Assembly: GCA_046351515.1 (NCBI GenBank)
Contig: JAXLYJ010000005.1
Location: 306,892 to 370,891, forward strand
DNA: 64,000 bases
Reading direction: 5' to 3'
DNA from: Polyangiales bacterium
Lineage (GTDB): Bacteria > Myxococcota_A > Polyangia > Polyangiales > Ga0077539
Made by a program: the position numbers and the translations under genes
Notes under the pieces: generated by a model
Database searches by the model: none
What the model saw: the letters and a program-made list of their open reading frames with translations, nothing else
Told to the model about the DNA's origin: nothing
Part shown: positions 2,565 through 40,750 of the stretch, piece after piece
Position numbering within the stretch: position 1 is the first letter of the stretch
Layout of the letters: every line of letters begins with the position of its first letter

Positions 2565-2631
2565 TTCGGCGTTCAACGCGCGGCGCGCGTTGAGCCCGCC
2601 GCGCGCGATCGGTATCGTTCGGGACGCTGAG

Positions 2632-8229: not shown

Positions 8230-8278
8230 CCGTGGCCACGAGCTTCGGGATGCTCGTCGTGTCGCGTGCGCTCGAGGC

Positions 8279-8758
8279 TCAGAGCAGCGCGGCGATGTCC
8301 TTCTCGATGGCCTCGGGCGTGTCGTTCGGCCCGTAGCGACGAACGATCTTGCCGCTGCGGTCGATCAAGAACTTCGTGAAGTTCCACTTGATCGACTCGG
8401 TGCCGAGCAGGCCGGGCGCCTCGTGCTTGAGGTATTGGTACAGCGGCGCCGCGGTAGGACCGTTGACGTCGATCTTCGAGAACATCTTGAACGAGACGCC
8501 GTAGTTGCGCTCGCAGAACGTCGCGATCTCGTCCGCGCCGCCCGGCTCCTGCTGCCCGAACTGATTGCAAGGAAAGCCCAGGATCTCGAGCCCCTTGTCG
8601 TTCAGCTTCTTGTGCAGCGCCTCGAGGCCCTTGTACTGCGGCGTGAACCCGCACTTGCTCGCGGTGTTCACCACGAGCAGGACCTTGCCTTCGAACTGCT
8701 TGAAATCAACGGGGCGACCGGTCAGGTCGTCCATCGTGAACTCGTGAATCTTCGCCAT
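8279..8758 (-). CDS. gpx: Glutathione peroxidase
   Basis: 159 aa. Motifs VVNTASKCGFTPQY and LGFPCNQFGQQEPG, with WNFTKFLIDRSGKIV, are diagnostic Gpx/BsaA signatures. Confidence 0.9.
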   Translation of the reverse strand: MAKIHEFTMDDLTGRPVDFKQFEGKVLLVVNTASKCGFTPQYKGLEALHKKLNDKGLEILGFPCNQFGQQEPGGADEIATFCERNYGVSFKMFSKIDVNGPTAAPLYQYLKHEAPGLLGTESIKWNFTKFLIDRSGKIVRRYGPNDTPEAIEKDIAALL

Positions 8759-8818
8759 GTGCGCGCCCGTACGCTCGCGCGGGGCAAGAAGTTTCGCCAG
8801 TCCCCCGAAGCGGTGATT

Positions 8819-9052
8819 TTAGCCGGACTTCTTGCGCGCTTTTTCGAGCAGCTCGCGGACGAGATCCGAGCGCGTAAACGCGGTCCCTTCATCGTCCTTC
8901 GCGCTGGTCTGCTTCTTCGCCTGCGCGTCGAGCCACTTCACCAGCGCCGAGGGAAGCGTCACGTGAACGCGCATCGGAGCGTCGATCTTGGCGGGTCGGC
9001 CAGCGCCCGGACGAGCGCCGCCATGCTTCTTCTTGGGAGTCTTGGCCTTCAT
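8819..9052 (-). CDS. Small basic DNA-binding protein, ribbon-helix-helix (CopG-like) with AT-hook-like GRP motif
   Basis: ORF 8819..9091. Likely start MKAKTPKKK. RPGAGRPAK (AT-hook-like), then RVHVTLPSALVKWLDAQA...SRSDLVRELLEKA, which is RHH-like. Confidence 0.4.
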   Translation of the reverse strand: MKAKTPKKKHGGARPGAGRPAKIDAPMRVHVTLPSALVKWLDAQAKKQTSAKDDEGTAFTRSDLVRELLEKARKKSG

Positions 9053-9116
9053 GCAGCGCACGATTGTGGCCGCTTTGGTTGATTGATGCACACGAAATCG
9101 CTGCGCGCTCCGGCGC

Positions 9117-9955
9117 TCAGCGCGCGGTCAAATCTACAGAGTACAGCACTCGCGGCCGTAGGGAAAACTCCGGCGCAATGCGCTCGTAGAACGCGGCCAC
9201 CGCCTCGTCCACCCAAGGCACGCACGCGCGCTCGAACCCTCGCTCGGCGAGGTCTCGCAGCGCGCTTTTCGCCACGGCCGCGCCCCACCCACGGCCCCGC
9301 GCGCTCGCTCGTGCTCCGAGCGGACCGAAGGTCCCCGCCGCTGCGCAGTGCCCCGAGTGCGCAGCAAACGCTGCGATTTCTCTGTCCGATCGCGCTACGA
9401 AGAGCCCGCCGCGCCCGAACGCCGCCCGCGCTTCGTCCGCCCACGCCTCGGAGAAATCTGCGCGCACCCACCGCGCGAGCTCCCCGAACGCGTCGTCGTC
9501 ACAGACGCGCTCGACCGCCGTCGCGACCGTGGGCTCGGGCGGCTGCACCCCGCGCGTGGTGACCCACAAATCAAGATGCCGCGATTTTTCCTGCCCGCCG
9601 AGCGATCGAAACGCGAGCTCGTCCTGTGAACCCACAGACACCCCCGAGCGCAGGTACCACCGCGGCGGTCCACCGGACCACAGCCGCGTCGCGCCGAGCG
9701 CTCGACACTCCTCCGCGAGCCGCTCGATCCGCACTCGCTCCGAGCTCGCTCCCGCTGCTCCGAGCAGCCATGCCCTCGTCCCCTCGATCACCGCGATCGC
9801 TGCGCCCGAGTCGTCGTCGATGACCGCGCACAGCGAGGCGCGATGCGCCGCGACGAGCTCCTCGGTGATCTCTCTCTCGATCGAGCGCGCGAGCGATTCG
9901 TCTTCGATCCATCGCGCGACCACGGCCTGCGCGGCGCGTTCGAGTGCGGTCATCG
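9117..9955 (-). CDS. GNAT-family N-acetyltransferase (two-lobed)
   Basis: C-terminal 279 aa of ORF 9117..10547. The N-terminal part of that ORF overlaps yjbQ on the opposite strand and was rejected. GNAT motif A-like [34 protein letters not shown]. Confidence 0.5.
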
Positions 9956-10019
9956 CGACCAACGGTCGCACACTCTTGATCGCCGCGCGCGCCCGCGCTC
10001 GGTGCAACACTGCGCGCCC

Positions 10020-18472: not shown

Positions 18473-18790
18473 TCAACCGCGAGTCGGGAGGGACTCGCAT
18501 CGCGACACGAGCGCGACGATCGCAGCGAAAGCAGCGGTCCGATCGCTCATCGGTTCGCGTGCGAGCCGTCTGAGCTCTCTTCGCCTGTGCGAGCGCGAAG
18601 CGAGAGCGAGCATTCGCGGGACGTACGGCCACAGAGGCCGCGCTGCTCCGTCACGGTGACGGATTCAACAACACAGCGCTGACCTCTGTCGTCGATCACG
18701 TCGCGTACGCGTCGCAGCGTCGCGCGTTTCTGCATTGGGGCAGGGGCGGCGGCGAGGCCACCGTGCGCGCGCATCGCAGGAGAAGCTCCA

Positions 18791-19987
18791 ATGAGCAAGG
18801 AGCGGTTCGAGCGCAGGAAGCCCCACGTCAACGTGGGAACCATCGGCCACATCGACCACGGCAAGACCACGCTGACGGCGGCGTTGAGCGCAGTGCTCAA
18901 GCGTCGCTTCGGCGGAGCGTACGCAGTGAAGGACTACGCTGCGATCTCGAAGGGCGGAACCGTTCGCGACGAGACCAAGACGGTCACGATCGCCTCGGGT
19001 CACGCCGAGTTCGAGACGCGCAAGCGTCACTACGCGCACGTCGATTGCCCGGGCCACGCCGACTACGTGAAGAACATGATTACGGGCGCGGCGCAGATGG
19101 ACGGGGCGATCCTCGTCGTCTCGGCGCTCGACTCGATCATGCCTCAGACCCGCGAGCACGTTCTGCTCGCGCGTCAGGTGGGCGTCGATCGAATGGTCGT
19201 GTTCATCAACAAGTGCGACGCGGCCGAGGACCCCGAGATCATCGACCTCGTCGAAATCGAGGCGCGCGAGCTGCTCACGCGCAACGGCTTCGACGGCGAC
19301 GGAGCTCCTGTGATCCGCGGCGCTGCGTTGCCTGCGTTGCGCGGCGACGCGCGGTGGGAAGACTCCATCGTGGCGTTGGCCGAGGCGCTGGACGAGTACG
19401 TGGTTCCGCCCGAGCGCGACGAGCGCGGGGCGTTTCTGCTCTCGGTCGAGGACGTCCACTCGATCCGCGGCGTCGGAACGGTCGTCACCGGCCGCGTCGA
19501 GCGCGGCGTCGTTCGCCCCGGCGACAACGTTGAAATCGTGGGTCTCGAGGACCGCCCTCGAACGACGGTCGTGACCGGCGTCGAGATGTTCAAGAAGACC
19601 CTCGACGAGGCGATCGCCGGAGACAACGTCGGCGTGGTCTTGCGCAACGTGGCTCGCTCGGACATCGAGCGTGGCCAGGTCGTCGCCGCTCCTGGAAGCG
19701 TCACGGCGAAGCGCAAATTCACCGCTGAACTCTACGTCCTTACCAAGCAAGAAGGCGGACGGCACACTCCCTTCGAGAGCTCGTACCGCCCGCAGTTCTT
19801 CATCCGCACCGCCGACGTCACCGGAACGGTCCGCTTGCTCGACCGCGAGCACGCATCGCCCGGCGACACGGTCAACATCGAGGTCGAGCTCACCGAACCC
19901 ATCGCGCTTGAAGCGAGCACTCGCTTCGCGATCCGCGAGGGCGGCCACACCGTCGGCGCGGGCCGCGTGACGGCGCTCGTGAGCTGA
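18791..19987 (+). CDS. tuf: Elongation factor Tu
   Basis: 398 aa. Contains GHIDHGKTT (G1), DCPGHADY (G3), NKCD (G4) and all three EF-Tu domains. Confidence 0.97.
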
Positions 19988-20039: not shown

Positions 20040-20074
20040 CGCGTTTCTCCTGCGCGTGACAGACTCGCGCACCG

Positions 20075-21109
20075 ATGGCCGTTGTTCGTCCCTCGACATG
20101 CGTAGCGATCGTGGGGGACGAAGCTGATGGAGCGCTGCGGCTCGTGCGCGCCGTCACTCAGCGCGCGGTGCGTTCGGTCGACGTGGCGATGGATTTCAAC
20201 CCGCCGATGGATGATGGCGGGGCGTTCGAGATCGTCGAGACCGACAAGCGTCGATACCTGTTCGTGCGAAGCGGAGATGACGGGCTCGCGGCGGTGCCCC
20301 GCACGTTCGACGCGGTGGTGCTCGCGTTGAGCGCCGAGCGTTCGGTGACGGCGAGGACGCGCGAGCTGGTATTCGAGCTCTCGTTGACGCATCGCGGACC
20401 GCTCGTCGTGGTGATCTCGGGCTGCGAGTCGGCGAGCGGCGAACCCCACCTCGTCGAGATCGAAGCGCGCGAGCTGCTCGATCAGTTCGGCTTCGACGCG
20501 GACGCAGTCGCGTGCGCGAGGATGCACGGGCTCGACGCGTCCGAGTGGCTCGCATGGCTCGACGATCACGCCTCCGTGTGCGCAGCACCACTGGAGCTCC
20601 CGCTGATCGCACGCGTCGAGCGGCAGAGCTATCGCGGCGCGATGCAGCTCGGCCTCGCGCAAGGCAGGATCGAACGGCGAGCGAAATACCAGGCACTCCG
20701 AGGTGCGATCGCGCTGCCGTGCGCGTTCGAAGAGAGCACGCTCGTCAGTCGAAGCGCGGCGTCATTTGGTGTCGGATCACTGGTCGCGCGCCCCAGGCAA
20801 ACGGGGCTCGAGCCGTCCGATTGGGTGGTGGACGCGTCCATCGCTCGCTCGATCCAGCGGCTTCGCGCGGCGCTGATCGTGACCGAGCCGCTCCTTGATG
20901 GATTGAGCGCCGAGCCGCTGTCGATCGAGTGGGGCAGCAATCGCGTGGACATCGCGCTCGAAGTGCAGCGCGTGTTCGCGGGTGATCGTCTCGCGCTGGT
21001 GACGGTGCGCTCGGACGAGCCGTTCTTCGCCATCGAGAGGGCGGGCGCGACGGTGGTTTCTCGGTTCGAGTTGGAGCGCATCGGCCGCGTTGTGTTCGCG
21101 TCGGACTGA
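20075..21109 (+). CDS. EF-Tu paralog with degenerate GTPase motifs (pseudo-GTPase, tuf-like)
   Basis: 344 aa, collinear with tuf. G1 GHIDHGKT is replaced by GDEADGAL, G3 DCPGH by RSGDD, and G4 NKCD by SGCE. Yet [10 protein letters not shown] is identical to tuf (28 of 30 nt identical). Domain 2 (PLIARVERQSYRGAMQLGLAQGRIERR against [25 protein letters not shown]) and domain 3 (FAIERAGATVVSRFELERIG against [19 protein letters not shown]) are clearly homologous. Confidence 0.6.
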   Translation: MAVVRPSTCVAIVGDEADGALRLVRAVTQRAVRSVDVAMDFNPPMDDGGAFEIVETDKRRYLFVRSGDDGLAAVPRTFDAVVLALSAERSVTARTRELVFELSLTHRGPLVVVISGCESASGEPHLVEIEARELLDQFGFDADAVACARMHGLDASEWLAWLDDHASVCAAPLELPLIARVERQSYRGAMQLGLAQGRIERRAKYQALRGAIALPCAFEESTLVSRSAASFGVGSLVARPRQTGLEPSDWVVDASIARSIQRLRAALIVTEPLLDGLSAEPLSIEWGSNRVDIALEVQRVFAGDRLALVTVRSDEPFFAIERAGATVVSRFELERIGRVVFASD

Positions 21110-25139: not shown

Positions 25140-25517
25140 ATGGAAACGCAGCAGCTCGTCGACACGATCAGCAAGCTCACCCTCAAGCAGGCGGCGGACC
25201 TCGCGGCCGAGCTCAAGAAGTCGCTCGGACTCGAAGGCATCTCCTTCGGCGGCGGCGGCGGCGGCAACGCGGCTCCGGCCGCGGCGGCTGCTCCGGTCGA
25301 GGAGAAGACGGAGTTCACCGTCGAGCTCACCGGCGCTGGCGCGAAGAAGATCGACGTCATCAAGGTTGTCCGTGAGATCACCGGACTCGGCCTGGGCGAG
25401 GCGAAGGCTCTCGTCGAGGGCGCGCCGAAGGCTCTCAAGGAGAACATCGGCAAGGCCGAGGCCGAGGACATCAAGAAGAAGCTCGAGGGCGCTGGCGCCA
25501 CGGTCACCCTCAAGTGA
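25140..25517 (+). CDS. rplL: 50S ribosomal protein L7/L12
   Basis: 125 aa. Gly/Ala-rich hinge and [30 protein letters not shown]-terminal domain. Confidence 0.95.
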
Positions 25518-25581
25518 TCCGAGCCCGTCGCAGGCGTTTGCTGAGTGAGCATTCACTGAGCTCGTGACCGGCGACACTGTA

Positions 25582-25660
25582 GAGGCGACGCAACGTGAGC
25601 ACTCGTGATGAGCGAGCGCGAGCGGGGTGTCGCCTCTCTGCTTTTCTCCCGCAGCGCTCG
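25582..25660 (+). terminator. Possible bidirectional terminator between convergent rplL and the sulfotransferase gene (8-bp inverted repeat gaggcgac/gtcgcctc followed by tctgcttttctcc)
   Basis: Inverted repeat plus T-rich tract seen directly. The loop is large, so the structure is uncertain. Confidence 0.25.
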
Positions 25661-25682
25661 CCACGGTCGTCGCGCGGGCAAA

Positions 25683-26876
25683 CTACGACGTCGAGCGCCG
25701 CTCGAACGGCTCGAGGCGACGACGCAGCGTTTCGTCATCGAGGCCGAAGTCGCTGAGCGCGTGCTTGTGCGCGCCGTGCCGGTGCTTGGGATGCTCGGCC
25801 GCGTACCGCCTCGCGTCGGCGAAATGCGCCTCGCCCCAGCCCATCGCGAAGCGCTCGTTGATCGCGCGAACGACGGACACTGGATCGCTCGTCAGCGCTT
25901 CGTACTCGACGTCGAGCCGCTGTTCAGCAGGCAGCCACGATCGTGCTTCGAGCGACGCGCGCAGGGTGCGTTCGCAGTGATCGAGCGCCTCCCGCCCGAC
26001 CGCGCGCGGGTCGGACTCGCGCACGATCGGCAGGCGAACGCCGTGAATCAAGCTGCACAACGACGAGACGCACGCGTCGAGCGCGCGGTGGCACTCGACG
26101 ATGCGCGCGTCGGGGTACGCCTCGATCAGCGCTCGCAAGAACAACACGTGCGAGGGATCTTTGAGCACCCACGTTGGTTGCTCGTCCCGCTGCCAGAGCT
26201 GCAGCAGCGATCGATGCTCGCGGTACGCGAAGCTCACATCTGCGGTCGCGAGCCAGCGCTGATAGCGCTCGGCGGGGGGGCTCGCGGGGAAGATTCCGCT
26301 GTTCTCGAGGATGAAATGGCACTCGTCTGGGCTCGTCGCTTCGACGTCGTGGATGAGCCGGACGTGAGGCGCCGCTGCGTAGAAGAGCGCCATGTCACGC
26401 GCGCACTGCTCGACGCGGTCGTCGTCAGCGCGGTCTGCGATGGGGCGATACAGCTCGAACAGCTTCGGCGAGCGCGCTCCCTCGATCGAGGCCAACATGC
26501 GCTGCAACAGCGTGGTGCCCGTTCGAGGCAGGCCGAGGATGAAGATCGGCGGCGCGATCGGGCGTGTGGATCCGGCGGCCGATCGCGCGCGCTCGACGTG
26601 CAGCCGATTGATTAGCGCGCGCAACACTCCCTGCCGTGTGAGCTTCGCTCCGAGCCACGTGAGCTGGTCGGTCTCAGCGACAGACTCGAGCAGCAGTTGG
26701 ATCGGTGTCTCGAAGTCGCGCGCGCCGAAGTCACTGAGATTCGTCACACGCCGCGCTTCGGCGCAGAGCTCGTCGAGCGTGGATGAGTTGGTGTTCAAAC
26801 CGATTCGTCGGCCTTGTTCGAGGACGGTGTTGGCGACGCGAAACCATCGCGGAAGATCGCTCTTTTGCCAGGTCAT
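25683..26876 (-). CDS. Sulfotransferase-family protein (PAPS-dependent, Sulfotransfer_3-like)
   Basis: 397 aa. ILGLPRTGTTLLQRML is the 5'-PSB PAPS-binding loop. Later RxxxDP and HRALDACVSS regions are consistent with bacterial sulfotransferases. Confidence 0.65.
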   Translation of the reverse strand: MTWQKSDLPRWFRVANTVLEQGRRIGLNTNSSTLDELCAEARRVTNLSDFGARDFETPIQLLLESVAETDQLTWLGAKLTRQGVLRALINRLHVERARSAAGSTRPIAPPIFILGLPRTGTTLLQRMLASIEGARSPKLFELYRPIADRADDDRVEQCARDMALFYAAAPHVRLIHDVEATSPDECHFILENSGIFPASPPAERYQRWLATADVSFAYREHRSLLQLWQRDEQPTWVLKDPSHVLFLRALIEAYPDARIVECHRALDACVSSLCSLIHGVRLPIVRESDPRAVGREALDHCERTLRASLEARSWLPAEQRLDVEYEALTSDPVSVVRAINERFAMGWGEAHFADARRYAAEHPKHRHGAHKHALSDFGLDDETLRRRLEPFERRSTS

Positions 26877-27072
26877 CTGTTGTCCGAGGGAGTCTTTGCG
26901 GCTGCACGGATCGCCGCCGTTCGCGCACGCGCCGCTGTGCGGCGTCGCTCGATGATCGTCGCGAGTGAACCATCTTCATCATCAACGCGAGCGCGTTCGT
27001 AACGATCGGAAATGCCGCGTCACGCGCTGTTCGCGCTCGACGCTCGCGTGTTGCGGCATACGCGCAGTCACG

Positions 27073-28461
27073 GTGTTTACGTCGCTCTTCAAGCGCTCGA
27101 ATCGCGCGTCGCTCCCGCGGGTCGCGCGACTCTCATCGAAGGTCCTTCACGCTGCCGTCGACGCGCACGGCGCGCACGCGTGGGCGGTGCTCGCGCGTGA
27201 GCACGGCGGCTCGTTTGTGGCATCGACGGGCGAGCTCTGCACTGCCGAGCCCGCGCTCGTCGAGTCGTTCTTGATGCACCGCGCGCACACCGAACACCGC
27301 GCGAAAGCGTACCGGCTCGCTGCGAAGGCGATGCCCGGCGCGGACGGGCTGCTCTTTCAAGACGGAGAGCCGTGGAAGGAGCAGCTCCGCGCGGTGATGC
27401 CGATCTTTCATCACGAGCGCATCGACGCGTTTGCGGCGACCGTCGCAGACACGCTTCGCACGTTTGCGCGACGCGCTCCCGATGGAGCGGACCTGTACCA
27501 CGCGATCACCGAGGCGAGCGCGGAGATCGCGCTGAAGGTCCTGCTCGGGCTCGATCCAGCGAGCGGTCCGGGCCTCGCGGTTCGCGAGCAGCTCGTTTCG
27601 TACAAGCTCGAGACGATGCGCGTCGATCGTTCGATGCGACTCGATGTGCTCGGCGGTCCGCCGATCGAAGCGGTGCTCGCCGCGCCGCGCGTCCTGCGCT
27701 CGATGCTGACGTTGCGCGATCGAGTGGCGATCATTCGCGACGAGCTCGCGCGAGCGAGGCGCGCCGGGATGCTCGATGACACGATCGTCGCGGTCGCCAA
27801 CGTCGCCGCGGACGAGCAGCGCTTCGCGGATTGGATCAATCACCTGTACGGCGCGTACAACGCCGTCGACTACGAGCTCACCGCGGCGCTCGTGTGCCTC
27901 GCGCGTGCGCCCGAGTGGATCGAGGCGCTGCGAGACGAGCTCGACGCGCAGCCGGCCGCCGCTCGCGCGGATCATCGCTCGCTCGCTGCGCTGCCGGTGT
28001 TGCGCGCGATCGTGCGAGAGACCGAGCGCGTGTGCCCCGTCGCAAACGCCGTGTTTCGTCAGGCGGGAGAGCGCTTCGAGTGCCAAGGCGAGTCCTTCGC
28101 CGAGGGCACGCAGGTGATGCTCAACCTCTATGCGCTCATGCGTCACCCTGACCATTGGGAGGAGCCGGATCGGTTCGACCCGAGCCGCTGGATCGGTGAG
28201 CGCGAGGCGAAGATCGCGGAGCGAGCGTTTGTTCCATTTCTCGCGGGGCCGCGACGATGCTTCGGGCGGACGCTGGCCGAGCTCGTGTTGCACGTCGGGC
28301 TGTCGACGATCGTGCGCGAGTTCGACGTCGTTGCGCGCGCCGATGGCGTCGACGTCACCGGACATTTCATCCCGAGATTCGAGCGCCCGATCGCGTTCGA
28401 GTTGCGCGAGCGCGTGAGCTCACCCTCGTCGATCGGCTCGCGCTCCGCGGATCGATGCTGA
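27073..28461 (+). CDS. Cytochrome P450
   Basis: ORF 26965..28461. FVPFLAGPRRCFGRTLAELVL is the heme-thiolate loop (FxxGxRxCxG). ETERVCP is the ExxR K-helix motif and AVDYELTAA is I-helix-like. Start uncertain: GTG at 27073 is proposed. Confidence 0.8.
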   Translation: MFTSLFKRSNRASLPRVARLSSKVLHAAVDAHGAHAWAVLAREHGGSFVASTGELCTAEPALVESFLMHRAHTEHRAKAYRLAAKAMPGADGLLFQDGEPWKEQLRAVMPIFHHERIDAFAATVADTLRTFARRAPDGADLYHAITEASAEIALKVLLGLDPASGPGLAVREQLVSYKLETMRVDRSMRLDVLGGPPIEAVLAAPRVLRSMLTLRDRVAIIRDELARARRAGMLDDTIVAVANVAADEQRFADWINHLYGAYNAVDYELTAALVCLARAPEWIEALRDELDAQPAAARADHRSLAALPVLRAIVRETERVCPVANAVFRQAGERFECQGESFAEGTQVMLNLYALMRHPDHWEEPDRFDPSRWIGEREAKIAERAFVPFLAGPRRCFGRTLAELVLHVGLSTIVREFDVVARADGVDVTGHFIPRFERPIAFELRERVSSPSSIGSRSADRC

Positions 28462-29804
28462 GCAGGTCGGCCATGACGAGTGACTCTGTCGTTCGGGCGA
28501 GCGCGACCGCGCGGCGCTCTGCGCTGTTTGTGTGCATTCCGCTCGTGGGGCACTGCAACCCGTTGATCGCGCAGGCCAAGGCGCTGCGCGCGCGTGGATT
28601 TCGCGTGGCGATCGCGTCGTTCGCCGAGCTGCGCGCGCACGTCACCGCCGCGGGCGTCAGCTTCGTCGACCTCGGGCCCACGCCCGGAGGCGCGACGGCG
28701 ATGAGCGATGTCTTCGAGCGAGCGAGCGCGGCGCGGAGCTTCTTCGCCTCGTCGAAGTTGCTGCTCGAGTGGACGCTCTCGCTGTGGACGCCGCTGTTCG
28801 ACGCGCTCGTCGCGCAGATGCGAGTCGACCGTCCGTCGGTCTTGATCGCGGACCTGATGACGAGCGGAGCGATGGACGCCGCCGAGGCGCTCGACGTGCG
28901 GCTCGTGGTCAACAACGCCGACCTGCTGCCGGCGCTTTCGCTAGGGCTTCTGCCGGTGGCGGACGATGTTCCGCCGCTGTTTTGGGGGCGATCGAGGCGC
29001 TCGATCGGCGCCAAAGAGAAGCTCGCGATCGCCGCCCTTCGATCGATCGCCGTCCGTGAAGCGACCCGCACGGTGGGCGCGACCTTGAATCAACTGCGGC
29101 GGAGTCGAGGGCTGTCGGCGCGCGATGTACACGCGCGGCTCGCGGGAACGTTTGTGATCACGAATTCAACGTTCGCCATCGAGTACCCGCGTCCGTTGCG
29201 GGCGAGCATGGTGATGCTCGGACCGATGCTCGATCGCGACGAGCCTCGGGAGCTCGGCGAGCTCGGCGACTGGTTGAATCGCCCGGAGCCGGTCGTGTAC
29301 GCGAACCTCGGGACCATCGTCGCGCCTGACCGTGCGCTGCTCGATCGGATGAACGACGCGTTTGCGAGGCTCTCTGCGCGGGTCCTGTGGACGCTGCGCC
29401 CTGCGCTGCGCGAGCGATTGCGGCGGCCGGTGGCGAGCAACGTTCGGCTCGTCGAGCGCGTGCCGTCGATGCGAGCGGTGCTCGCGCACGAGCGGGTTCG
29501 TGCGTTTGTGAGTCACTGCGGCGTCAACTCGGCGCACGAGTCGCTGTGGGAAGGGTGCCCCATCGTGGGGCTCGGCGTGTTCGCCGACCAAGACGACATG
29601 GCGTGGAGAGTCGAGGACGCGGGCGTCGGCGTGAGGCTCGATTCGCGCAAGGCGAGCGCGATCGAGATCGCTTCGGCGATCGAGCGCGTGATGCGCGACG
29701 AGTCGATGCGCGCGCGCGCTCGCGAGGTGCGCGCGAGCTTCGAGGCAGCCGGCGGGGCAGAAATGGCGGCGTTGCTCATCGAGCAGTGCGCCGCGCGCGA
29801 ATGA
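28455..29804 (+). CDS. GT1-family UDP-glycosyltransferase (macrolide-GT/CrtX/Rgt-like)
   Basis: ATG overlaps the P450 stop by 7 nt. N-terminal FVCIPLVGHCNPLIAQAKAL and C-terminal FVSHCGVNSAHESLWEGCPIVGLGVFADQ (PSPG-like donor box) are GT1/MGT signatures. Confidence 0.8.
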   Translation: MLSRSAMTSDSVVRASATARRSALFVCIPLVGHCNPLIAQAKALRARGFRVAIASFAELRAHVTAAGVSFVDLGPTPGGATAMSDVFERASAARSFFASSKLLLEWTLSLWTPLFDALVAQMRVDRPSVLIADLMTSGAMDAAEALDVRLVVNNADLLPALSLGLLPVADDVPPLFWGRSRRSIGAKEKLAIAALRSIAVREATRTVGATLNQLRRSRGLSARDVHARLAGTFVITNSTFAIEYPRPLRASMVMLGPMLDRDEPRELGELGDWLNRPEPVVYANLGTIVAPDRALLDRMNDAFARLSARVLWTLRPALRERLRRPVASNVRLVERVPSMRAVLAHERVRAFVSHCGVNSAHESLWEGCPIVGLGVFADQDDMAWRVEDAGVGVRLDSRKASAIEIASAIERVMRDESMRARAREVRASFEAAGGAEMAALLIEQCAARE

Positions 29805-29820
29805 AAGACAGAGAGGAACA

Positions 29821-32079
29821 GTGACGATGAGCGACGAGCTTGCCCGCGGAACAGCGGCGATTCCTTCGGACTGGCCTGGGCGAGGGCCGATCGACCTCGC
29901 GGTGCACGACCTGCCTCACGCTTCGTCTTCGGTCGAGTGGTGGTACGTCAACGCGCACGTCGAGACGGACAAGGGCGCGAAGCTCTCGGTGTTCGCGAGC
30001 TTCTTCGTCGTGACGGTGTCCGACGAGGACGCCGCGCGAACGGGCAGCAAACATCGGCACTTCGTGACGTGGGCGGTGATCGACCCCGAGCGCAGAGCGT
30101 ACGTGGCCGAGGCGCTGCTCGACCCGAAGACGCCCGCCGATGGCATCGAGCGGCTCGATCGCGGAGAAGGTTCGACGGACGTCCGAATTCGGCGCGCGAT
30201 GAGGGAGATGTTCGAGCGAGGAGGCGTTCCGAAGCCAGATCGTCTGCTGCGCACATCGAGCGTGGCGACGGATCGACTGGCGATCGCGATGGACGCGCAG
30301 CGGTTTACGAAGCTCGACGACGGGAGGTATCGCTTGGAGCTCGCGTCGAGCGACGGCGCGACGGGCGCGACGCTCGATTTCTCCCTCGAGAAGCCGGTGA
30401 TTCGCCACGGAGACGACGGCGTCGTCGCGGGCTTCACGGTGAAGCGAATGTTCTACTACTTCGTTCCTCGCTGCGGCGTGAGCGGCACCGTTCGCGTCGC
30501 GGGCGAAGAGCAGCGCGTGGTGAGCGGTCGCGGCTGGTACGACCACGAGTTTGGCGAGCACGCGTCTGGCGCGGCCGGCAAAGAGCAGTCCGTCGCGTGG
30601 AACTGGATCTCAGCGCAGCTCGATGACGGCACCGACGTGAGCGCGTACGAGACCTACGACGAGGGCGATGGAAACAAGCCGCTCGAGCGCCGCGTGGTGA
30701 TCATTGCCGCGGACGGAGCACGCACGGTGCACAGTGATTTCACGCTCGAATCGTCGGAGCCGTGGACGAGCACACGCACGTTCAACGCGTACCCGACGCG
30801 TTGGAAGCTCACGGTGCCTTCGGCTGACCTCGTGATCGACGCGCGCGCGGCGTTCGTGGCCCAGGAGTTTTGCACGCTGCTGTCCCCGCCGGCGTTTTGG
30901 GAGGGACGCATGGACATCCGCGCGAATCGCGCGGGCATCGAGGTGCAAGGCGTCGGGTTCGTCGAGCGGTCGGGGATGCAAGAGTCGACCACGCTCGATC
31001 GCTTCTTCACTGCGGTCGGTCGCGAGTCGCGTCGCGCGGTGGATCAGCTCATCCCGGCGAGGCTCGAACGGCAAGACCTCGTGCGACTGTTCGCGAGCGA
31101 GCGTCACGCGGATCACATGAACGGGGTCGACGCCGAGCAGCTCTCGGCGGTGCTCACTCGTCCGGTTCGCGACATCGCGCTGCGCGGCGGAAAAGCCTGG
31201 CGCTCGTTCGCGCTGCTCGCCTCGCTCGACATGGTGGGCGGCGACTCCGAGCGGCACCGGCACTGGCTCGCGTTTCCTGAGCTGCTGCACACGGGGAGCT
31301 TGATCCTCGACGACGTTCAGGATCGAAGCGAGGTGCGTCGCGGCGGTCCGTCGCTGCACCGGTTGATCGGCGAGCCGCTCGCGATCAACGCGGGCAGCGC
31401 GTGCGCGTACCTCGCGCTGCTCGTCGGGCTGAAGGACGAGATGACGGCGGACGTTCGCGTGCGCGTTCACGAAGAGTTCTTTCAGGCGCTTCGCGCGGCG
31501 CACGCGGGGCAGGCGCTCGACATCGCAGGGTTGCATCACTTGCTTCCCGTGGTCGTCGAGAGCGGCGACGGAGCGCTGCTCGAAGAGCGGGTGAGGGCGA
31601 TCCATCGACTGAAGTCTGCGATTCCGCCGGCGGCGCTCGCGCGCGCGGCGGTGCACATTGCCGGAGGAACGCGGGAGCAAGAAGCGGCGCTCGACGCGCT
31701 CTTCGACGCGTTCGGCGTGGCGTTTCAAGGGATGGACGACGTGCTCAACCTCCGCGGCTTCGAGGGCAACCTCAAGGATCGCGGCGAGGACGTCGCTGAA
31801 GGAAAGGTCACCGCGCCCGTGGCGAAGGCGATGAGCCGGCTCGCGCTCGAGGGGCGCCGCGAGCTGTGGGCCATTCTCGATTCGAGCACGAGGGACCGCG
31901 CGAAGATCGACCGAGCGATCGCGTTGATGGAGTCGTGCGGCGCGATCGACGCGGTCGAGCAAGAAGCGCGTTCGTTGATCGAGACGACGTGGGAGCGCGT
32001 GGCGCCGGTGTTCGAGGACTCGCTCTCGAAGCTGATGATCCGCTCGTTCGGCTGGTACATCCTCGAGCGGCACTACTGA
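29821..32079 (+). CDS. Fusion protein: N-terminal CrtC/AttH-like carotenoid 1,2-hydratase-like lipocalin domain plus C-terminal trans-polyprenyl diphosphate synthase domain
   Basis: GTG start with AGAGAGGA RBS. N-terminal SVEWWYVNAHV...SFFVV matches the CrtC/AttH signature. C-terminal LILDDVQDRSEVRRGGPSLH (FARM), GQALD, FQGMDDVLN (SARM variant DDxxN) and AEGKVT match the isoprenyl diphosphate synthase fold. Confidence 0.65.
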   Translation: MTMSDELARGTAAIPSDWPGRGPIDLAVHDLPHASSSVEWWYVNAHVETDKGAKLSVFASFFVVTVSDEDAARTGSKHRHFVTWAVIDPERRAYVAEALLDPKTPADGIERLDRGEGSTDVRIRRAMREMFERGGVPKPDRLLRTSSVATDRLAIAMDAQRFTKLDDGRYRLELASSDGATGATLDFSLEKPVIRHGDDGVVAGFTVKRMFYYFVPRCGVSGTVRVAGEEQRVVSGRGWYDHEFGEHASGAAGKEQSVAWNWISAQLDDGTDVSAYETYDEGDGNKPLERRVVIIAADGARTVHSDFTLESSEPWTSTRTFNAYPTRWKLTVPSADLVIDARAAFVAQEFCTLLSPPAFWEGRMDIRANRAGIEVQGVGFVERSGMQESTTLDRFFTAVGRESRRAVDQLIPARLERQDLVRLFASERHADHMNGVDAEQLSAVLTRPVRDIALRGGKAWRSFALLASLDMVGGDSERHRHWLAFPELLHTGSLILDDVQDRSEVRRGGPSLHRLIGEPLAINAGSACAYLALLVGLKDEMTADVRVRVHEEFFQALRAAHAGQALDIAGLHHLLPVVVESGDGALLEERVRAIHRLKSAIPPAALARAAVHIAGGTREQEAALDALFDAFGVAFQGMDDVLNLRGFEGNLKDRGEDVAEGKVTAPVAKAMSRLALEGRRELWAILDSSTRDRAKIDRAIALMESCGAIDAVEQEARSLIETTWERVAPVFEDSLSKLMIRSFGWYILERHY

Positions 32080-32099
32080 GCGAGAGCGAGAACGACACC

Positions 32100-33143
32100 G
32101 TGATCGCGACATCGCTCAGCGCTGAGGACGACCTTCGCCACGCACACGGCGACGATCCTCACTGGAACGAATCGTTCTATTTCAATTTCTTCGACGCCGA
32201 CCGCGGCCTCGGCGGCTTCACGCGCATCGGGTTTTCTCCGTCGCGCGGCGTGGTGGACATGGTCCTGTGTGTCTATCGCCCGAGCGGCGGCGTGCTCGTC
32301 GTGCGCAGGGTCGCGCCGTTTTCAGCGCTGAGTGAGCGGCGCTCGCTCGTCGAAGTGGGGCCGCTGCGATTCGAGTGCGTCGAGCCTCTGCATCGTTGGC
32401 GGCTGTTCTTCGCGGGCGACGCGTTTTCGATCAGCGATCCAGCGGTCGTGCTCGCCCTGACGAGGCACGGGCTCGTGGATGTCGCGCGGGCGGGGCTCGC
32501 GATCGATCTGGAGTTTACCGCGCTTCATCCAGTGTACGTGTTTCCGAAGCTGCCGCAGCGGAGGATGTCGCTCGGCGAGTCGCTCGGCGCTCGGCGGTCG
32601 TTTGGGGACATCGTCGCGCGGGCCAGGAGGGTTCCGGCGCGGCTCGCGAGCGCCGTGAAGATGCGAGACAACCATCACTTCGAGCAGGCGGGGCGCGTGC
32701 GCGGGCTCGTCGCGATCGACGGCGAGCGAGTCTCGATCGACGGCACGGGGATGCGCGATCGATCATGGGGCCTTCGCGATTGGACGGTGCCCACGCGCTG
32801 GTGGTGGATCAACACGCAGTTCGGCGACGACCTCGCGTTCAACGCGTTTCGCATTCACCTGTTCGGCTACGACGCGTGGGGCGGCTACGTGTGGAACAAC
32901 GGTCGTCTCAGCACGCTCGGCGATTGGAAGCGCCACGAGCGACAAGACGGCACCGCGTTGCTCACGTTGCCCGCCGAAGACGGCGCGGTGCACGAAGTGA
33001 TCGTCGAGCGACTCATGCCCGTCCCGTTCTCGATCAGCGAGCCCGGGTTCGACACGGTGCTCGACGAGGCGATCGCGAGGTTTCGATGGAACGGGCGGGC
33101 GTCGCTCGGCATCGACGAGAAAATGGAGCGTGTTTTTCCATGA
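32100..33143 (+). CDS. Hypothetical protein, possibly second CrtC/AttH-like beta-sandwich domain protein
   Basis: ORF 31866..33143. Proposed GTG 32100 start just after the upstream stop. HWNESFYFNFFD...WWWINTQFGDD aromatic-rich beta motifs. Its stop overlaps the next start (ATGA). Confidence 0.4.
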   Translation: MIATSLSAEDDLRHAHGDDPHWNESFYFNFFDADRGLGGFTRIGFSPSRGVVDMVLCVYRPSGGVLVVRRVAPFSALSERRSLVEVGPLRFECVEPLHRWRLFFAGDAFSISDPAVVLALTRHGLVDVARAGLAIDLEFTALHPVYVFPKLPQRRMSLGESLGARRSFGDIVARARRVPARLASAVKMRDNHHFEQAGRVRGLVAIDGERVSIDGTGMRDRSWGLRDWTVPTRWWWINTQFGDDLAFNAFRIHLFGYDAWGGYVWNNGRLSTLGDWKRHERQDGTALLTLPAEDGAVHEVIVERLMPVPFSISEPGFDTVLDEAIARFRWNGRASLGIDEKMERVFP

Positions 33144-35830
33144 GCATCCTGATCGACCTCTCGAGCGAGCGCGCGCGTGACGTCGCGCAGGTGGGTTCGA
33201 AGGCCTGCTCGCTCGCCTCGCTCGCGCGCGAGGGCTTTCGGGTCCCCGCCGCGGTGGTCGTCGACAGCGCAGCGTTCGACCGCGCGATCGACGCGCTGGG
33301 CTTGCGCGAGGCGCTCGTCGCGCTGCACGAGGACCGCTCGATCGACGAGCCATCGCTGCGCGAGCGAGCGACGGAGATCCAAGCGTGCATCCGCCGCTCG
33401 AGCCTCGAGCCACCGCTGATCGACGCCGTCCGCGCGTGGGTCACCGACGAGAGCGCTCGTTGGGCGGTGCGCTCGTCAGCGATCGCCGAGGACCTCGGCG
33501 ACGCGAGCTTCGCGGGCGTGTACGAGTCCGTGCTCGGAGCGCGGGGAGCGGACGCGGTCATCGACGCGATCCGGCAATGTTGGGCGTCGTTCGTCTCTGC
33601 GCATGCGATCTCGTATCGAAGGCGGCACGCGACGACGAACTTTCGCGGCGCGGTCCTCGTGCAGGCGCTGATCGACGCGGATGCTGCAGGCGTCGCCTTC
33701 ACGCGAGAGCCGACGACGGGCGCGACGGACGTCGTCGTCATCGAGTCGACGCGCGGTCTGGGCGAGGCGCTCGTCTCGGGGCACGTCTCGCCGGACGCGT
33801 TTTGGGTGCGCAAGCGCGACGGGGTGATCCTACGATCACGCATCGTCGAGAAGCGCTCGGCGACGAGGCTCGCTCCGCAGGGAGTCGAGCTCGTGGCGCT
33901 CGATGAGCGTCAGTCTTTCGCTGCGTCGATTGACGATCGAACGGCGCGCGCGATCGCCGCGGTCGCAACGCAGATCGAGCGTGTTCGCGAGCGCTGCGTC
34001 GACGTCGAGTGGGCGACGGCCGGCGGAGCGCTGTGGGTGCTGCAGGCGCGCGCGATCACCGCGGGAGCGTCATCGCAAGACGCGCGGACCAGCATCGACG
34101 TGAGCGACGACTTCGTCCCTGCGTTGCAGAGCAAAATCGATCCGCGCTTCGTCTGCTACTCGCGAGGAAACATCGGCGAGGTGCTCCCTGGCTGCGTGAC
34201 CCCCCTCGCGTTCAGCTTGTCGGTCCCGCCGCTCGAGCATGCGTTTCGGTCGATGGGCGCGAGCACGGGAGTGCTCCCGGCGCTCGGCGAAGAGCCGGTG
34301 ATCCTCGGGATGTTCTTTCATCGGTTGTACTTGAACGTGAGCGTGTTTCTCGCGATGGCCGACGCCTCGCCGGGAGCGTCACGAGACGCCGTGTACGAAG
34401 AGCTCGTCGGGCCAGTGAGCGAGCGATCGTCGGCGTTCAAGTGGAGCGACCTTCGACCGTCGCGCATCAAGCAAGGCCTGCGCGTGTGGGGCGCCGCGCT
34501 CGCGCAGGACAAGCGCGCGGAGTCCGACCTGGCCGAGTGCGTGCGCGAGCTCGACCGAGAGCGAGCGAGGATCGACGAGTTTCCTCCAGAGCAGTGGGCG
34601 TTGGATCGATTTGTGTCCGAGCCGCTGCTGGTCGCGAGGCGCTCGCGCGCGGTCGACGTTCACATCGTGATCTCGCAGGGGGCGTCGTCGAACTATCGAT
34701 TCTTGAAGGAGCAGTGCGCGAAGCACCTCGGCGACGAGCGCGGCTCGCTCGCAGCGTTGTTGGTCTCGGGAATCGGCTCGCTGGCGAGCGCGGATCCTGC
34801 GGTCGCGATCGACACGCTCGCGCGAGAAGCGCTCGCGCACGCGACGGTCCGGGCGCTGTTCGAGCACGAACACGACGATCGAGCGCTGTGGTCCGCGCTG
34901 CAAGCGAGGCGAATGAGCGACGAGGGGGCCGCGGCGTTTCTGCGCGCCTTCGAGGTGTTCTTGGTGAGGCACGGGCACCGAGGCGTGGGCGAGGGAGATT
35001 TTCGCAACGCGACGTGGCGCGAAGAGCCCCCGCGCGTGCTCGCGTTCGTGCGTGCGCAGCTCGCGACGGGCGGCGTCGAGGCGAGCGCGCGGCTCGATCG
35101 GCAGCGCGCGTTGGCTGAGCGTGCTCGCGCAGAGAGCGCGGCGCGGATCGGCGCGTTGAGTCGATCGGTGTTCACGGCGGTGCTTCAGGGCTCGCTGCGG
35201 TACCTGCGCCTGCGCGAAGAGAGCAAAGACGTCGTGATGCGCTTCGGTGATCTGACGCGTCGAGTGGTGCGCGCGTTGAGCGCGCGGCTGGTCGAAGCGC
35301 AGCGGCTGCACACCGAGGACGACGTGCACTTTTGCACGGTGAACGAGCTGCTCGCGATGGCGAGGGGCGAGCTCGACCGAGAGCAGATCGAGTCGATCGT
35401 GGCTGCGAGGCGGGCGGACTTCGCTAGGTGCGAGGCGATCGACGTTCCCAAGCTGATCGAGGGAAGGGCGCGGTGGATACGCGCGCAGGCTCGAGAGGCT
35501 CCGTCGGGGGCGCTCGCGGGGGTGGCGGCGAGCGCAGGCGTCTTCGAGGGAACCGCGCGGGTGCTGAGCGATCCGTCCGACGGAGCGCGGCTCGAGAAGG
35601 GCGACGTGCTCGTCGCGCCGGTGACCGACCTCGCGTGGACGCCGCTGTTTTCACGGGCGGGCGCCGTGGTGGTCGAGGTCGGCGGGCTTCTGTCCCACGG
35701 CAGCGTCGTGGCGCGCGAGTACGGGCTGCCGGCGGTCGTGGGCGTCGCCGGAGCGCTCGGGGTGATTCGCGATGGCGCGCGCGTGCGGGTGGACGGCGAT
35801 CGCGGCGAAGTGACGGTGCTCGCCCCCTGA
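33140..35830 (+). CDS. PEP-utilizing-enzyme family phosphotransferase with rifampicin-phosphotransferase-like architecture (PPDK_N ATP-grasp, central domain, C-terminal phosphohistidine swivel domain)
   Basis: ATG 33140 inside ORF 32375..35830. N-terminal VGSKACSLASLAREGFRVPAAVVV...WAVRSSAIAEDLGDASFAGVYES is the PPDK/PpsA N-terminal ATP-binding domain. C-terminal GDVLVAPVTDLAWTPLFSRAGAVVVEVGGLLSHGSVVAREYGLPAVVGV is the mobile His domain. There is no C-terminal TIM-barrel, which resembles rifampicin phosphotransferase (Rph) rather than PpsA. Confidence 0.7.
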   Translation: MSILIDLSSERARDVAQVGSKACSLASLAREGFRVPAAVVVDSAAFDRAIDALGLREALVALHEDRSIDEPSLRERATEIQACIRRSSLEPPLIDAVRAWVTDESARWAVRSSAIAEDLGDASFAGVYESVLGARGADAVIDAIRQCWASFVSAHAISYRRRHATTNFRGAVLVQALIDADAAGVAFTREPTTGATDVVVIESTRGLGEALVSGHVSPDAFWVRKRDGVILRSRIVEKRSATRLAPQGVELVALDERQSFAASIDDRTARAIAAVATQIERVRERCVDVEWATAGGALWVLQARAITAGASSQDARTSIDVSDDFVPALQSKIDPRFVCYSRGNIGEVLPGCVTPLAFSLSVPPLEHAFRSMGASTGVLPALGEEPVILGMFFHRLYLNVSVFLAMADASPGASRDAVYEELVGPVSERSSAFKWSDLRPSRIKQGLRVWGAALAQDKRAESDLAECVRELDRERARIDEFPPEQWALDRFVSEPLLVARRSRAVDVHIVISQGASSNYRFLKEQCAKHLGDERGSLAALLVSGIGSLASADPAVAIDTLAREALAHATVRALFEHEHDDRALWSALQARRMSDEGAAAFLRAFEVFLVRHGHRGVGEGDFRNATWREEPPRVLAFVRAQLATGGVEASARLDRQRALAERARAESAARIGALSRSVFTAVLQGSLRYLRLREESKDVVMRFGDLTRRVVRALSARLVEAQRLHTEDDVHFCTVNELLAMARGELDREQIESIVAARRADFARCEAIDVPKLIEGRARWIRAQAREAPSGALAGVAASAGVFEGTARVLSDPSDGARLEKGDVLVAPVTDLAWTPLFSRAGAVVVEVGGLLSHGSVVAREYGLPAVVGVAGALGVIRDGARVRVDGDRGEVTVLAP

Positions 35831-35842
35831 GCGCTGCGCGGC

Positions 35843-36190
35843 TCAGTTCTGCTGGCTCGCGGGCAGCTGCTCGGCCATGAACTCGAGCCCCTGACGGGTG
35901 ATGAGGAAGCGGACCGTTCCGGTTCCGCGCTCGGTGTCGATCGTGGCTTCGAAGGCAGGGCCGCCGACGGTGCCGAGCATCATGTCGCGTCGGAGGTTGT
36001 CGATCTTGCCCTGAACGAGCGGAGCGTTGATCTTGGCGCTGCCTGTGTCCGTTCGGTACAAGTCCCAAGCGGCGTCGAACAGGATGCGAGCGAGCGAAGA
36101 GCTGAGCGGCTGTGTGCTGAAGAGCACGGAGATCAGCCGCCATTTGAAGTCGTCGTCGGGGGAGGGGGCGTCGTTCGAGTCGTCTTGCAT
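35843..36190 (-). CDS. Hypothetical small protein (115 aa) upstream of and divergent from rpoB
   Basis: ORF only. No motifs recognised. Codon usage is consistent with the genome. Confidence 0.35.
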   Translation of the reverse strand: MQDDSNDAPSPDDDFKWRLISVLFSTQPLSSSLARILFDAAWDLYRTDTGSAKINAPLVQGKIDNLRRDMMLGTVGGPAFEATIDTERGTGTVRFLITRQGLEFMAEQLPASQQN

Positions 36191-36559
36191 TGGGCGACAG
36201 AATCACTGTGAGAATTTCGAGGAAATCACGGGGACCGCAAAGAGCGGGCCAGGGGGGCTTGCACGCGTGGTGCGGCCGGGTTAGAAGGCCGCTCCCTCGT
36301 ACTTGCCAGTGTTGTCACTGACGAGGCCGAGTCCGTTAGCCCTGAACTGGAGGAGACGAGAGGCCGCAGCAGAAGCGTTGCAAGTCGACAGCATCGCCCG
36401 ACCGATCGTCCGAGTCATACTACTCCGAACGGAACCGGCGCGCCGCAGCGAAGAAATCGCCTGAAAATCTTCAGGCAACTTCACGCTGCAGCACGGTTGC
36501 CGACCCTTGTGAGCTCTTCTCGCTGAGCCTCTCTCTCCCGACCCGTGCAGAGAGGATCC

Positions 36560-40750
<4,191 letters not shown>

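Follow-up and report, generated by a model that had tools for sequence, protein, structure and literature searches.

A probable terpenoid biosynthetic cluster inserted between rplL and rpoB in a Polyangiales genome, and its putative kinase–lyase pair

The neighbourhood of rplL and rpoB is among the most conserved gene adjacencies in bacteria. In a stretch of 64,000 nt from a Polyangiales bacterium (assembly GCA_046351515.1, contig JAXLYJ010000005.1, positions 306,892 to 370,891; this whole stretch is called the window here), rplL (25140–25517, + strand; ribosomal protein L7/L12, Pfam Ribosomal_L12 and L12_N) and rpoB (36560–40750, + strand, placed by its open reading frame (ORF) and translation) are 11,042 bp apart. 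What is the DNA that separates them, and what do its genes do? We propose that the gap has two layers, a resident spacer and an inserted, self-contained biosynthetic cluster, probably for a glycosylated terpenoid, and we give this reading, including the chemistry proposed below, a probability of about 0.68. The resident layer comprises the terminator hairpin of rplL, an antisense ORF of 115 aa and an rpoB leader with a 14-nt motif in this Polyangiales clade. The inserted layer is a 10.2-kb accessory island, bounded by the terminator on one side and by the 3′ end of the small ORF on the other. The anomaly itself is real and rare, and is explained as an accessory biosynthetic cluster in a clade-specific hotspot.

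One genome per GTDB species was scanned with the N-terminal 400 residues of RpoB, and the best 80 loci were kept. In 79 of these 80 loci rplL lies upstream of rpoB, the median gap being 170 bp and the 95th percentile 491 bp, and in the two nearest GTDB genomes, whose RpoB N-terminus is 80% identical, the genes stand 339 and 500 bp apart. An earlier note on this DNA had described an 11-kb split of a normally close gene pair; the survey bears this out, the two genes standing close together across the 79 loci. Gaps of at least 600 bp occur in three of the 79 (642, 1512 and 4154 bp), one of them with unrelated cargo, and thus the junction can be breached in Myxococcota but rarely is. That cargo belongs to L007, a Myxococcales metagenome-assembled genome (MAG), in which a different insertion of 4.1 kb (5844–9994), giving the gap of 4154 bp, codes for two proteins, one of 697 aa that is rich in Cys and apparently secreted and one of 257 aa; it is an independent breach of the junction. 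As a separate observation, 10 kb upstream of rpoB in the chromosome of an alphaproteobacterial MAG (L080) contain no rplL, and a polyprenyl-synthase-like match lies ∼4 kb upstream.

Close relatives show where the two layers meet. A blastn comparison with L169 (84–92% identity) loses homology at the rplL stop (25519) and finds it again exactly at 35843, where the small ORF (35843–36190, − strand) has its stop; with L172, homology extends to 25650 at 91.6% nucleotide identity (blastn). A terminator-like hairpin with a U-rich tract follows rplL (25579–25650, + strand; RNA fold −41.9 kcal/mol, z = −2.7) and ends exactly at the left insertion junction; the same hairpin is found in L169 and L172. 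In L169 and in the P0144 contig, rplL, the small ORF and rpoB succeed each other without the island and with spacers of ∼166–200 bp, the spacer of L169 being 166 bp long and carrying this hairpin. Because of the junctions in these relatives and the presence of the small ORF without the island, the small ORF belongs to the resident spacer, as does the rpoB leader, and the insertion consists of six genes. It is ∼10.19 kb long and runs from 25651 to ∼35835, its right junction falling somewhere in 35831–35842. Seven genes and ∼10.3 kb had been assigned to the insertion in the earlier note; all seven stand where it placed them, but the small ORF must be taken out of the insertion and the length is corrected to the above value.

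A third state of the site is seen in L171–L173, which are closer still than L169: their rpoB is 93–95% identical to that of the window in nucleotide sequence, their RpoB N-terminus is 98% identical in amino acids, and the rplL 3′ region is shared up to 25650. Between this region and the small ORF they have a spacer of 1.3 kb, in which a piece of P450 gene, interrupted by an in-frame stop, matches window positions 27572–28085 with 75% nucleotide and 67% amino acid identity. The remainder of the decayed spacer in L171 and L172 has no match in the window. A 29-nt tandem duplication (AGACACATCGCCGCGCGCGTAGGCCGAAC, twice) accompanies the pseudogene fragment at the decayed site of L172 (spacer 2297–3615) and L171 (5140–6160). 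This P450 remnant shows that an island of this type once stood at this very site in a sister lineage and has since decayed. By our own rough estimate, which is not a computed value, the 25% divergence of the remnant is near the level of neutral sites, the rpoB differences being mostly synonymous. All these lineages are closely related: the N-terminal 400 residues of RpoB are 97–98% identical between the window and L169 or L171–L173, rpoBC of L169 is 92% identical in nucleotides, and rplL of the window shares 84–94% of its amino acids with rplL of L169 and L172. In these close relatives the site is empty or holds nothing but a P450 pseudogene, and we therefore regard it as a hotspot of recombinational gain and loss, located just downstream of the terminator and without signs of a mobile element.

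Could the gap instead be an assembly or binning artefact, i.e. a chimeric contig that joins unrelated DNA between rplL and rpoB? The source is indeed a MAG, and no independent contig across either junction was retrieved, also by an exact-protein look-up of the last protein of the island. However, L171–L173 are three independent Joint Genome Institute (JGI) contigs that carry the P450 remnant exactly here, between rplL and the small ORF, and the interior of the island is found again, at ∼100% identity, in an independent Logan assembly. Moreover, the island has a host-like composition and its junctions lie at sensible intergenic points, right after the terminator or the stop codon. We therefore hardly believe in an artefact at all.

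GC content is 67% in the window (island 0.679, remainder 0.668), and the codon-usage distances of the island genes (0.068–0.11) lie within the range of control host genes (0.059–0.186). According to Pfam, none of the seven genes codes for an integrase or transposase domain, the repeats flanking the island are background-level GC-rich ones, and the junction sequences contain no target-site duplication that we could find. There is no tRNA gene at the junctions, the nearest being 4 kb away. Hence none of the marks of a mobile element or classical genomic island (integrase or transposase, tRNA target, repeats, deviant composition) is present. The earlier note had made the same points on composition and on the lack of integrases, transposases and flanking repeats, and its view of a lineage-specific insertion rather than a mobile element is upheld by them and by the empty and decayed sites of the close relatives.

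The resident layer has features of its own. The 115-aa ORF has 57 homologues in Myxococcota, with a strongly conserved core GTIGGPAFEA-x-IETERG-x-GTVRF, and stands alone and antisense between rplL and rpoB in L169 and the P0144 contig. The family adjoins rpoB in antisense only in this clade, a distant homologue being located at an unrelated locus in a Myxococcaceae MAG. It matches no Pfam or NCBIfam model, and its AlphaFold2 (AF2) model, a confident alpha/beta fold with pLDDT 79, gave no Foldseek match in the PDB below E = 0.1. In the rpoB leader or promoter region, a 14-nt motif (AGTCATACTACTCC; 36414–36427, + strand) recurs exactly ∼115–135 nt upstream of the rpoB start in L005 (9881–9894), L006 (9909–9922), L169 and L171–L173, and may be a promoter or leader element of rpoB. 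An Rfam scan returned only tRNAs and no leader or attenuator family in the spacer, and terminator-like matches are at chance level except for the rplL hairpin. Elsewhere in the conserved tuf–secE–nusG–rplKAJL–rpoBC string, a 349-aa ORF without Pfam match (20060–21109, + strand) lies between tuf (18683–19987) and tRNA-Trp/secE; this second lineage-variable insertion has a counterpart in L169 (353 aa) and none in the P0144 contig.

Of the six inserted genes, the first codes for a sulfotransferase (25683–26876, − strand; Sulfotransfer_3, PF13469, 124 bits), which is divergent from the others and probably a peripheral tailoring gene. The divergent intergenic region (26877–27072, from the gene coordinates) would contain promoters for it and for the five genes that follow on the + strand. 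These are a cytochrome P450 (∼27073–28461; Pfam p450, 138.9 bits; presumed GTG start), a GT1-family UDP-glycosyltransferase (28455–29804; Pfam UDPGT and EryCIII-like_C), a 752-aa fusion of a CrtC/AttH-like two-barrel N-terminal domain with a C-terminal trans-prenyl diphosphate synthase (29821–32079), a 347-aa protein like 25-phosphosteroid lyase (32100–33143; DUF7065 and DUF7064), and an 896-aa phosphotransferase with the architecture of rifamycin phosphotransferase (Rph) and likeness to phosphoenolpyruvate (PEP) synthase (33140–35830; PPDK_N and PEP-utilizers), the proposed kinase partner of the lyase. The junctions within this apparent operon are −7, +16, +20 and −4 nt; the P450 and GT1 genes overlap by 7 nt if the ATG at 28455 is the start, and the start of the Rph-like gene overlaps the stop of the lyase-like gene (ATGA). 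Both couplings, which the earlier note had pointed out, are seen in the coordinates.

The same set of genes is found in unrelated contexts. In L159 the fusion, the DUF7065/DUF7064 ORF, the Rph-like gene, the P450 and the GT1 (five of five) are contiguous, intact and co-directional at 35–51% amino acid identity, flanked by unrelated genes and away from rplL and rpoB. Also away from these genes, L003 has a sugar 4,6-dehydratase/epimerase, the fusion, a GT-B-like protein unrelated to the GT1 of the island, the DUF7065/DUF7064 ORF and the Rph-like gene, without a P450. In L004, whose fusion is 91% identical, the window order of sulfotransferase, P450, GT1, fusion and the start of the next gene is kept as far as the contig reaches. 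Its sulfotransferase has 68% amino acid identity, and no sulfotransferase was found in L159 or L003. The fusion is further paired with GT1 genes in L087, L088, L102 and L152. The recurrence of the set away from rplL and rpoB and its tight junctions indicate that the five co-directional genes are a co-inherited and probably co-transcribed biosynthetic unit.

The N-terminal region of the fusion (residues 38–383) matches PF07143 (67.9 bits, cut-off 22.5) and PF17186, Lipocalin_9 (73.3 bits, cut-off 26.2), its synthase domain matches PF00348 (polyprenyl_synt, 143.9 bits), and in the PDB the fusion finds AttH (2ICH, E = 6e-14) and also geranylgeranyl diphosphate (GGPP) synthases. In the hydratase-type motif GWYDHEFG, W239, D241, H242 and E243 are invariant in 27 homologues, as is EWWY. 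In the synthase, D497, D498 and D501 of the first motif (DDVQD) and D639, D640 and N643 of the second (DDVLN) are invariant, the third Asp of the second motif being Asn throughout the family. The best NCBIfam match of this domain is IdsA with 118 bits (cut-off 468). The family has 829 full-length homologues of ∼40–55% identity, mostly in Myxococcota and including Sandaracinus amylolyticus, and in all 829 the CrtC-like domain is fused to the prenyl diphosphate synthase. We found no description of a CrtC::prenyl-synthase fusion in a literature search, and to our knowledge no CrtC of this architecture has been characterised. With regard to neighbours in general, the commonest one (18 of 84 fusion loci, e.g. 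L095, L101, L103, L119, L130 and L146) is a ∼620-aa polytopic membrane protein, which has no Pfam or PDB match and hence gives no clue to a general role of the fusion; the second (14 loci, including Sandaracinus) is a ∼210-aa protein without Pfam match.

Hydration of the CrtC type, glycosylation of the CrtX type and oxidation by the P450 could also serve to tailor a C40 carotenoid made elsewhere, with a myxobacterial glycosyl-carotenoid as the product. The CrtC and Lipocalin_9 matches of the fusion, and the GT1 and P450 genes that adjoin it, agree with this idea. However, as the earlier note had remarked for the window, CrtB and CrtI are missing: a Pfam scan of its 38 larger ORFs (the seven ORFs of the gap, SecE, NusG and 29 flanking ones; about nine smaller candidate ORFs and rplK, rplA, rplJ, rpoB and rpoC were left out) gave neither, the called genes of L003 include no such family, and the ORFs scanned in L159 gave none. 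Moreover, the island brings its own prenyl diphosphate synthase, and since the CrtC-like domain is invariably fused to such a synthase, a linear prenyl substrate is pointed to. We also know of no role for a kinase–lyase pair in carotenoid pathways. Carotenoid tailoring is thus improbable; the earlier suggestion of a tailoring cluster for a glycosylated terpenoid is retained in modified form, on the strength of the L159 and L003 gene sets, and loses its carotenoid flavour.

As for the other tailoring enzymes, the P450 has FLAGPRRCFG, which resembles the heme-Cys motif, and its best NCBIfam matches are models of P450s for peptides that are made by ribosomes and modified after translation (RiPP; ApyO) and for terpenes, all under cut-off. 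The closest solved structures to the GT1 are generic bacterial and plant UDP-glycosyltransferases such as YjiC. All Pfam families named as present in the earlier note exceed their gathering scores, with the exception of PF07143 for the ORF downstream of the fusion.

That ORF, of 347 aa, had been taken for a second CrtC/AttH-like protein, but Pfam finds DUF7065 and DUF7064 in it and no CrtC. In the PDB it matches 25-phosphosteroid lyase (25-PSL; 9FZN, 9G2I and 9G4C) with E = 3.5e-6 as a single sequence and 1.2e-12 as a family profile. Its AF2 model (pLDDT 89.5) has these structures at Foldseek ranks 1–5 (E 6e-14 to 2e-13, TM 0.57–0.62), followed by AttH 2ICH, decalin-forming pericyclases and kievitone hydratase. 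The motif G-x-RDRSWG-x-R (GTGMRDRSWGLR), which lies within the sequence match, has G217, R219, D220, S222, W223, G224 and R226 invariant in 16–18 homologues, and the PDB variant 9G4C differs from 9FZN in having Asn at the motif Asp. Judged from sequence, motif and predicted fold, the ORF codes for a 25-PSL homologue. A profile search of its family in 1.84 billion representative proteins gave 2,908 members at E ≤ 1e-3, and the literature search gave no description of DUF7064/7065. In a profile–profile alignment (hhalign), GMRDRSWG of the lyase aligns with GWYDHEFG of the fusion, and a direct BLASTP of the lyase against the N-terminal domain of the fusion gave no match. Because of these fold and profile results and the motif alignment, the island holds two diverged members of the AttH superfamily, one with a hydratase-type motif in the fusion and one with an Arg-rich lyase-type motif in the 347-aa ORF.

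In Sterolibacterium, the kinase 25-HSK forms a tertiary phosphoester at C25 from which 25-PSL splits off the phosphate, and the net result of the two steps is the dehydration of a tertiary alcohol in an isoprenoid side chain (PMC8449060, PMC11061730). The group-transfer potential of this phosphoester is slightly greater than that of ATP, so that the kinase reaction, which forms ADP, can run freely in both directions (PMC8449060, PMC11061730). Is there a kinase for the lyase of the island as well? The candidate is the adjoining Rph-like protein, which has the three-part Rph architecture, with PPDK_N at residues 16–315 and PEP-utilizers at 819–889, and whose catalytic His motif GGLLSHGSVVAREYGLPAV aligns with GGLMTHGAVIAREYGLPAV of Listeria Rph (5FBS).

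The Rph architecture, together with the position next to rpoB, had led to the suggestion in the earlier note that the genes form an island for inactivating xenobiotics or RNA polymerase inhibitors beside the target gene, the GT1 being Rgt-like and the Rph-like protein a rifamycin phosphotransferase; the His motif agrees with this as well. The rifamycin phosphotransferase model NF041857 does give 348.6 bits with the protein, but its cut-off is 999; NF000283 gives 229 (cut-off 1700) and the GT1 gives 28.8 with the Rgt model NF000354 (cut-off 800). Models of a PEP-synthase subfamily (411.6 bits), PigC (366.3) and RedH (355.8) score equally or better, and in a phmmer alignment with Listeria Rph (255 bits) residues 11–308 and 594–894 align whereas 309–593, the substrate-domain region, do not. 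Furthermore, the gene is start/stop-coupled to that of a phosphate-lyase homologue in a pair that recurs or is fused elsewhere, the five-gene set is found away from rpoB, and relatives without the island share 97–98% of the RpoB N-terminus. An inactivation island is therefore very improbable, and this suggestion was dropped.

The pair of Rph-like enzyme and lyase recurs in other genomic settings. The two genes are adjacent in five independent loci (the window, L003, L159, L167 and L168), the last two of which lack the fusion, and the window protein is closer to the lyase-linked homologues of L167 and L168 (500–529 bits) than to Listeria Rph, although the scoring methods of the two comparisons differ. 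In addition, the two functions are joined in single proteins. P0226 consists of PPDK_N, PEP-utilizers, DUF7065 and DUF7064, and its first 865 residues align end to end with the window protein (E = 2e-92); P0211 and P0215 combine PPDK_N with the lyase, P0267 combines PEP-utilizers with the lyase, and P0281 combines the lyase with an APH/EcKL-type kinase. The strongest evidence is this fusion of the lyase to two unrelated types of kinase, because of which the lyase should work on the product of a kinase and the Rph-type protein should be that kinase here. A presumed parallel with Rv3168/Rv3169 was sought through the APH-type domain of P0281, and this domain had no match in the PDB. On these sequence grounds the pair is more likely to be an ATP-dependent alcohol dehydratase than to include a rifamycin kinase.

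Dehydration of this kind could also belong to the breakdown or detoxification of an exogenous hydrophobic alcohol (terpenoid or steroid), in the way of the anaerobic degradation of sterols. A catabolic enzyme, 25-PSL, is the sole homologue to have been characterised (PMC11061730). In L167 the order is TetR regulator, FadL-type porin, lyase, Rph-like enzyme, Fe-S/CCG protein and two FAD oxidases, and in L168 it is lyase, Rph-like enzyme and enoyl-CoA hydratase. However, the functions of prenyl diphosphate synthase, GT1 and sulfotransferase are those of anabolism or tailoring, Pfam finds no transporter, regulator or beta-oxidation gene in the island, and the five-gene set is conserved together with the synthase fusion. 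A catabolic island has thus some small chance of being right, and we prefer the biosynthetic cluster.

In such a cluster, the synthase domain of the fusion would make an all-trans prenyl diphosphate, possibly of ∼C20, and the fused CrtC/AttH-like domain would hydrate a double bond of the isoprenoid to a tertiary alcohol. The Rph-like enzyme would phosphorylate an alcohol by means of its phospho-histidine domain (ATP → AMP + Pi), and the 25-PSL homologue would then expel the phosphate, leaving an alkene or a carbocation. Hydroxylation by the P450, glycosylation by the GT1 and sulfation by the sulfotransferase could follow, so that a hydroxylated, glycosylated and possibly sulfated terpenoid would result. 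The AMP-forming phospho-histidine mechanism is established for Rph and is supposed for the window enzyme; by analogy, a tertiary alcohol phosphorylated in this way would be locked in that state for practical purposes, the reaction being in effect irreversible. More generally, we suggest tentatively, as somewhat short of an even chance, that pairs and fusions of Rph-architecture enzymes with DUF7065/7064 proteins are a widespread two-component ATP-dependent system, which converts a tertiary or hindered isoprenoid hydroxyl to a phosphate and expels the latter, the AMP-forming reaction overcoming the unfavourable equilibrium of 25-HSK. In the island, with the AttH-hydratase::prenyl-synthase fusion, it would open a non-canonical route to a terpene alkene or carbocation. 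As far as our literature search shows, this kinase–lyase system is undescribed, and the search found no description of an Rph-like enzyme paired with a lyase.

Several points weigh against this picture. Functions and product are assigned from sequence and context, and it is genomic association that makes the Rph-like enzyme the presumed kinase of the lyase; 25-HSK itself is a 43-kDa, APH-type, ADP-forming enzyme (PMC8449060) and not of the Rph type. Adding water and then removing it would lead nowhere, except with a different regiochemistry or substrate, or with an alcohol of other origin. The match of the lyase to 25-PSL covers only profile positions 6–100 and 188–223, with a structural likeness of TM ∼0.6 at 17–18% identity. 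With regard to context, the pair in L167 and L168 sits among catabolic-looking genes, the Rph-like gene of L003 is split by a frameshift or an assembly error, and ∼75 of the 84 fusion loci lack the other island genes, because of which the fusion should have a role independent of the cluster. A scan for the sigma-70 consensus gave zero matches, which is uninformative for a genome of 67% GC.

The locus is of interest in several respects. It indicates that the rplL–rpoB junction can serve as a hotspot for gain and loss of accessory DNA in one myxobacterial clade, with intact, decayed and empty states visible, and it removes a tempting but unsupported resistance-gene reading of an Rph-like enzyme beside rpoB. 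A concrete function is proposed for two large and poorly annotated groups, the DUF7065/7064 proteins (∼2,900 representative clusters) and the lyase-linked Rph/PEP-synthase-like enzymes. If the proposal is true, the two groups form a kinase–lyase dehydration module, and many proteins annotated as 'Rph' or 'PEP synthase' would be alcohol-activating kinases of lipid or terpenoid metabolism instead of resistance genes. With this pairing, an enzyme system that was characterised very recently would also gain a new type of kinase and a place in biosynthesis. Finally, an orphan cluster, probably for a terpenoid glycoside, with an unusual hydratase::prenyl-synthase fusion in an uncultured soil Polyangiales is a target for heterologous expression.

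Among known systems, the fusion is best compared with the CrtC/AttH superfamily (PF07143, PF17186; 2ICH; kievitone hydratase 7A0T), to both Pfam domains of which its N-terminal 400 residues correspond. It has the invariant EWWY and WYDHEFG, and the model of the lyase shares the fold; the difference is that its domain is covalently joined to a prenyl diphosphate synthase, with no carotenoid genes found nearby. The synthase half, with DDVQD and DDVLN invariant in the fusion family, is like the type III (eukaryotic-type) GGPP synthases, yeast GGPPS 2DH4 being among its matches, and the DDxxN form of the second motif, which occurs in eukaryotic-type GGPP synthases, would be compatible with activity. 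Fungi have bifunctional fusions of a prenyltransferase with a terpene synthase, in which, as here, a chain-elongating prenyl diphosphate synthase is joined to a second domain acting on the isoprenoid chain; however, the partner in the island is a beta-barrel of the AttH/CrtC type and not an alpha-helical class I terpene synthase.

Rph of Listeria monocytogenes (5FBS/5HV1; NF041857 and NF000283) shares with the 896-aa protein the ATP-grasp, middle and His swivel domains and the catalytic His motif. The latter protein differs by scores far under the equivalog cut-offs, by the unaligned residues 309–593 and by having no link with rifamycin. The closest parallel for the proposed reaction is the pair 25-HSK/25-PSL of Sterolibacterium denitrificans, since the 347-aa ORF is homologous to 25-PSL in sequence, RDRSWG motif and predicted fold, is likewise partnered with an ATP-using phosphotransferase and presumably has an alcohol on an isoprenoid chain as its substrate. 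In the island, however, the partner is an 896-aa protein of the Rph/PEP-synthase type with a phospho-His domain, which should form AMP and Pi. Moreover, the two genes are coupled by ATGA here, whereas no lyase candidate lies near the kinase gene in Sterolibacterium (PMC8449060), and the setting is a biosynthetic one, with prenyl synthase, P450, glycosyltransferase and sulfotransferase, in place of sterol catabolism.

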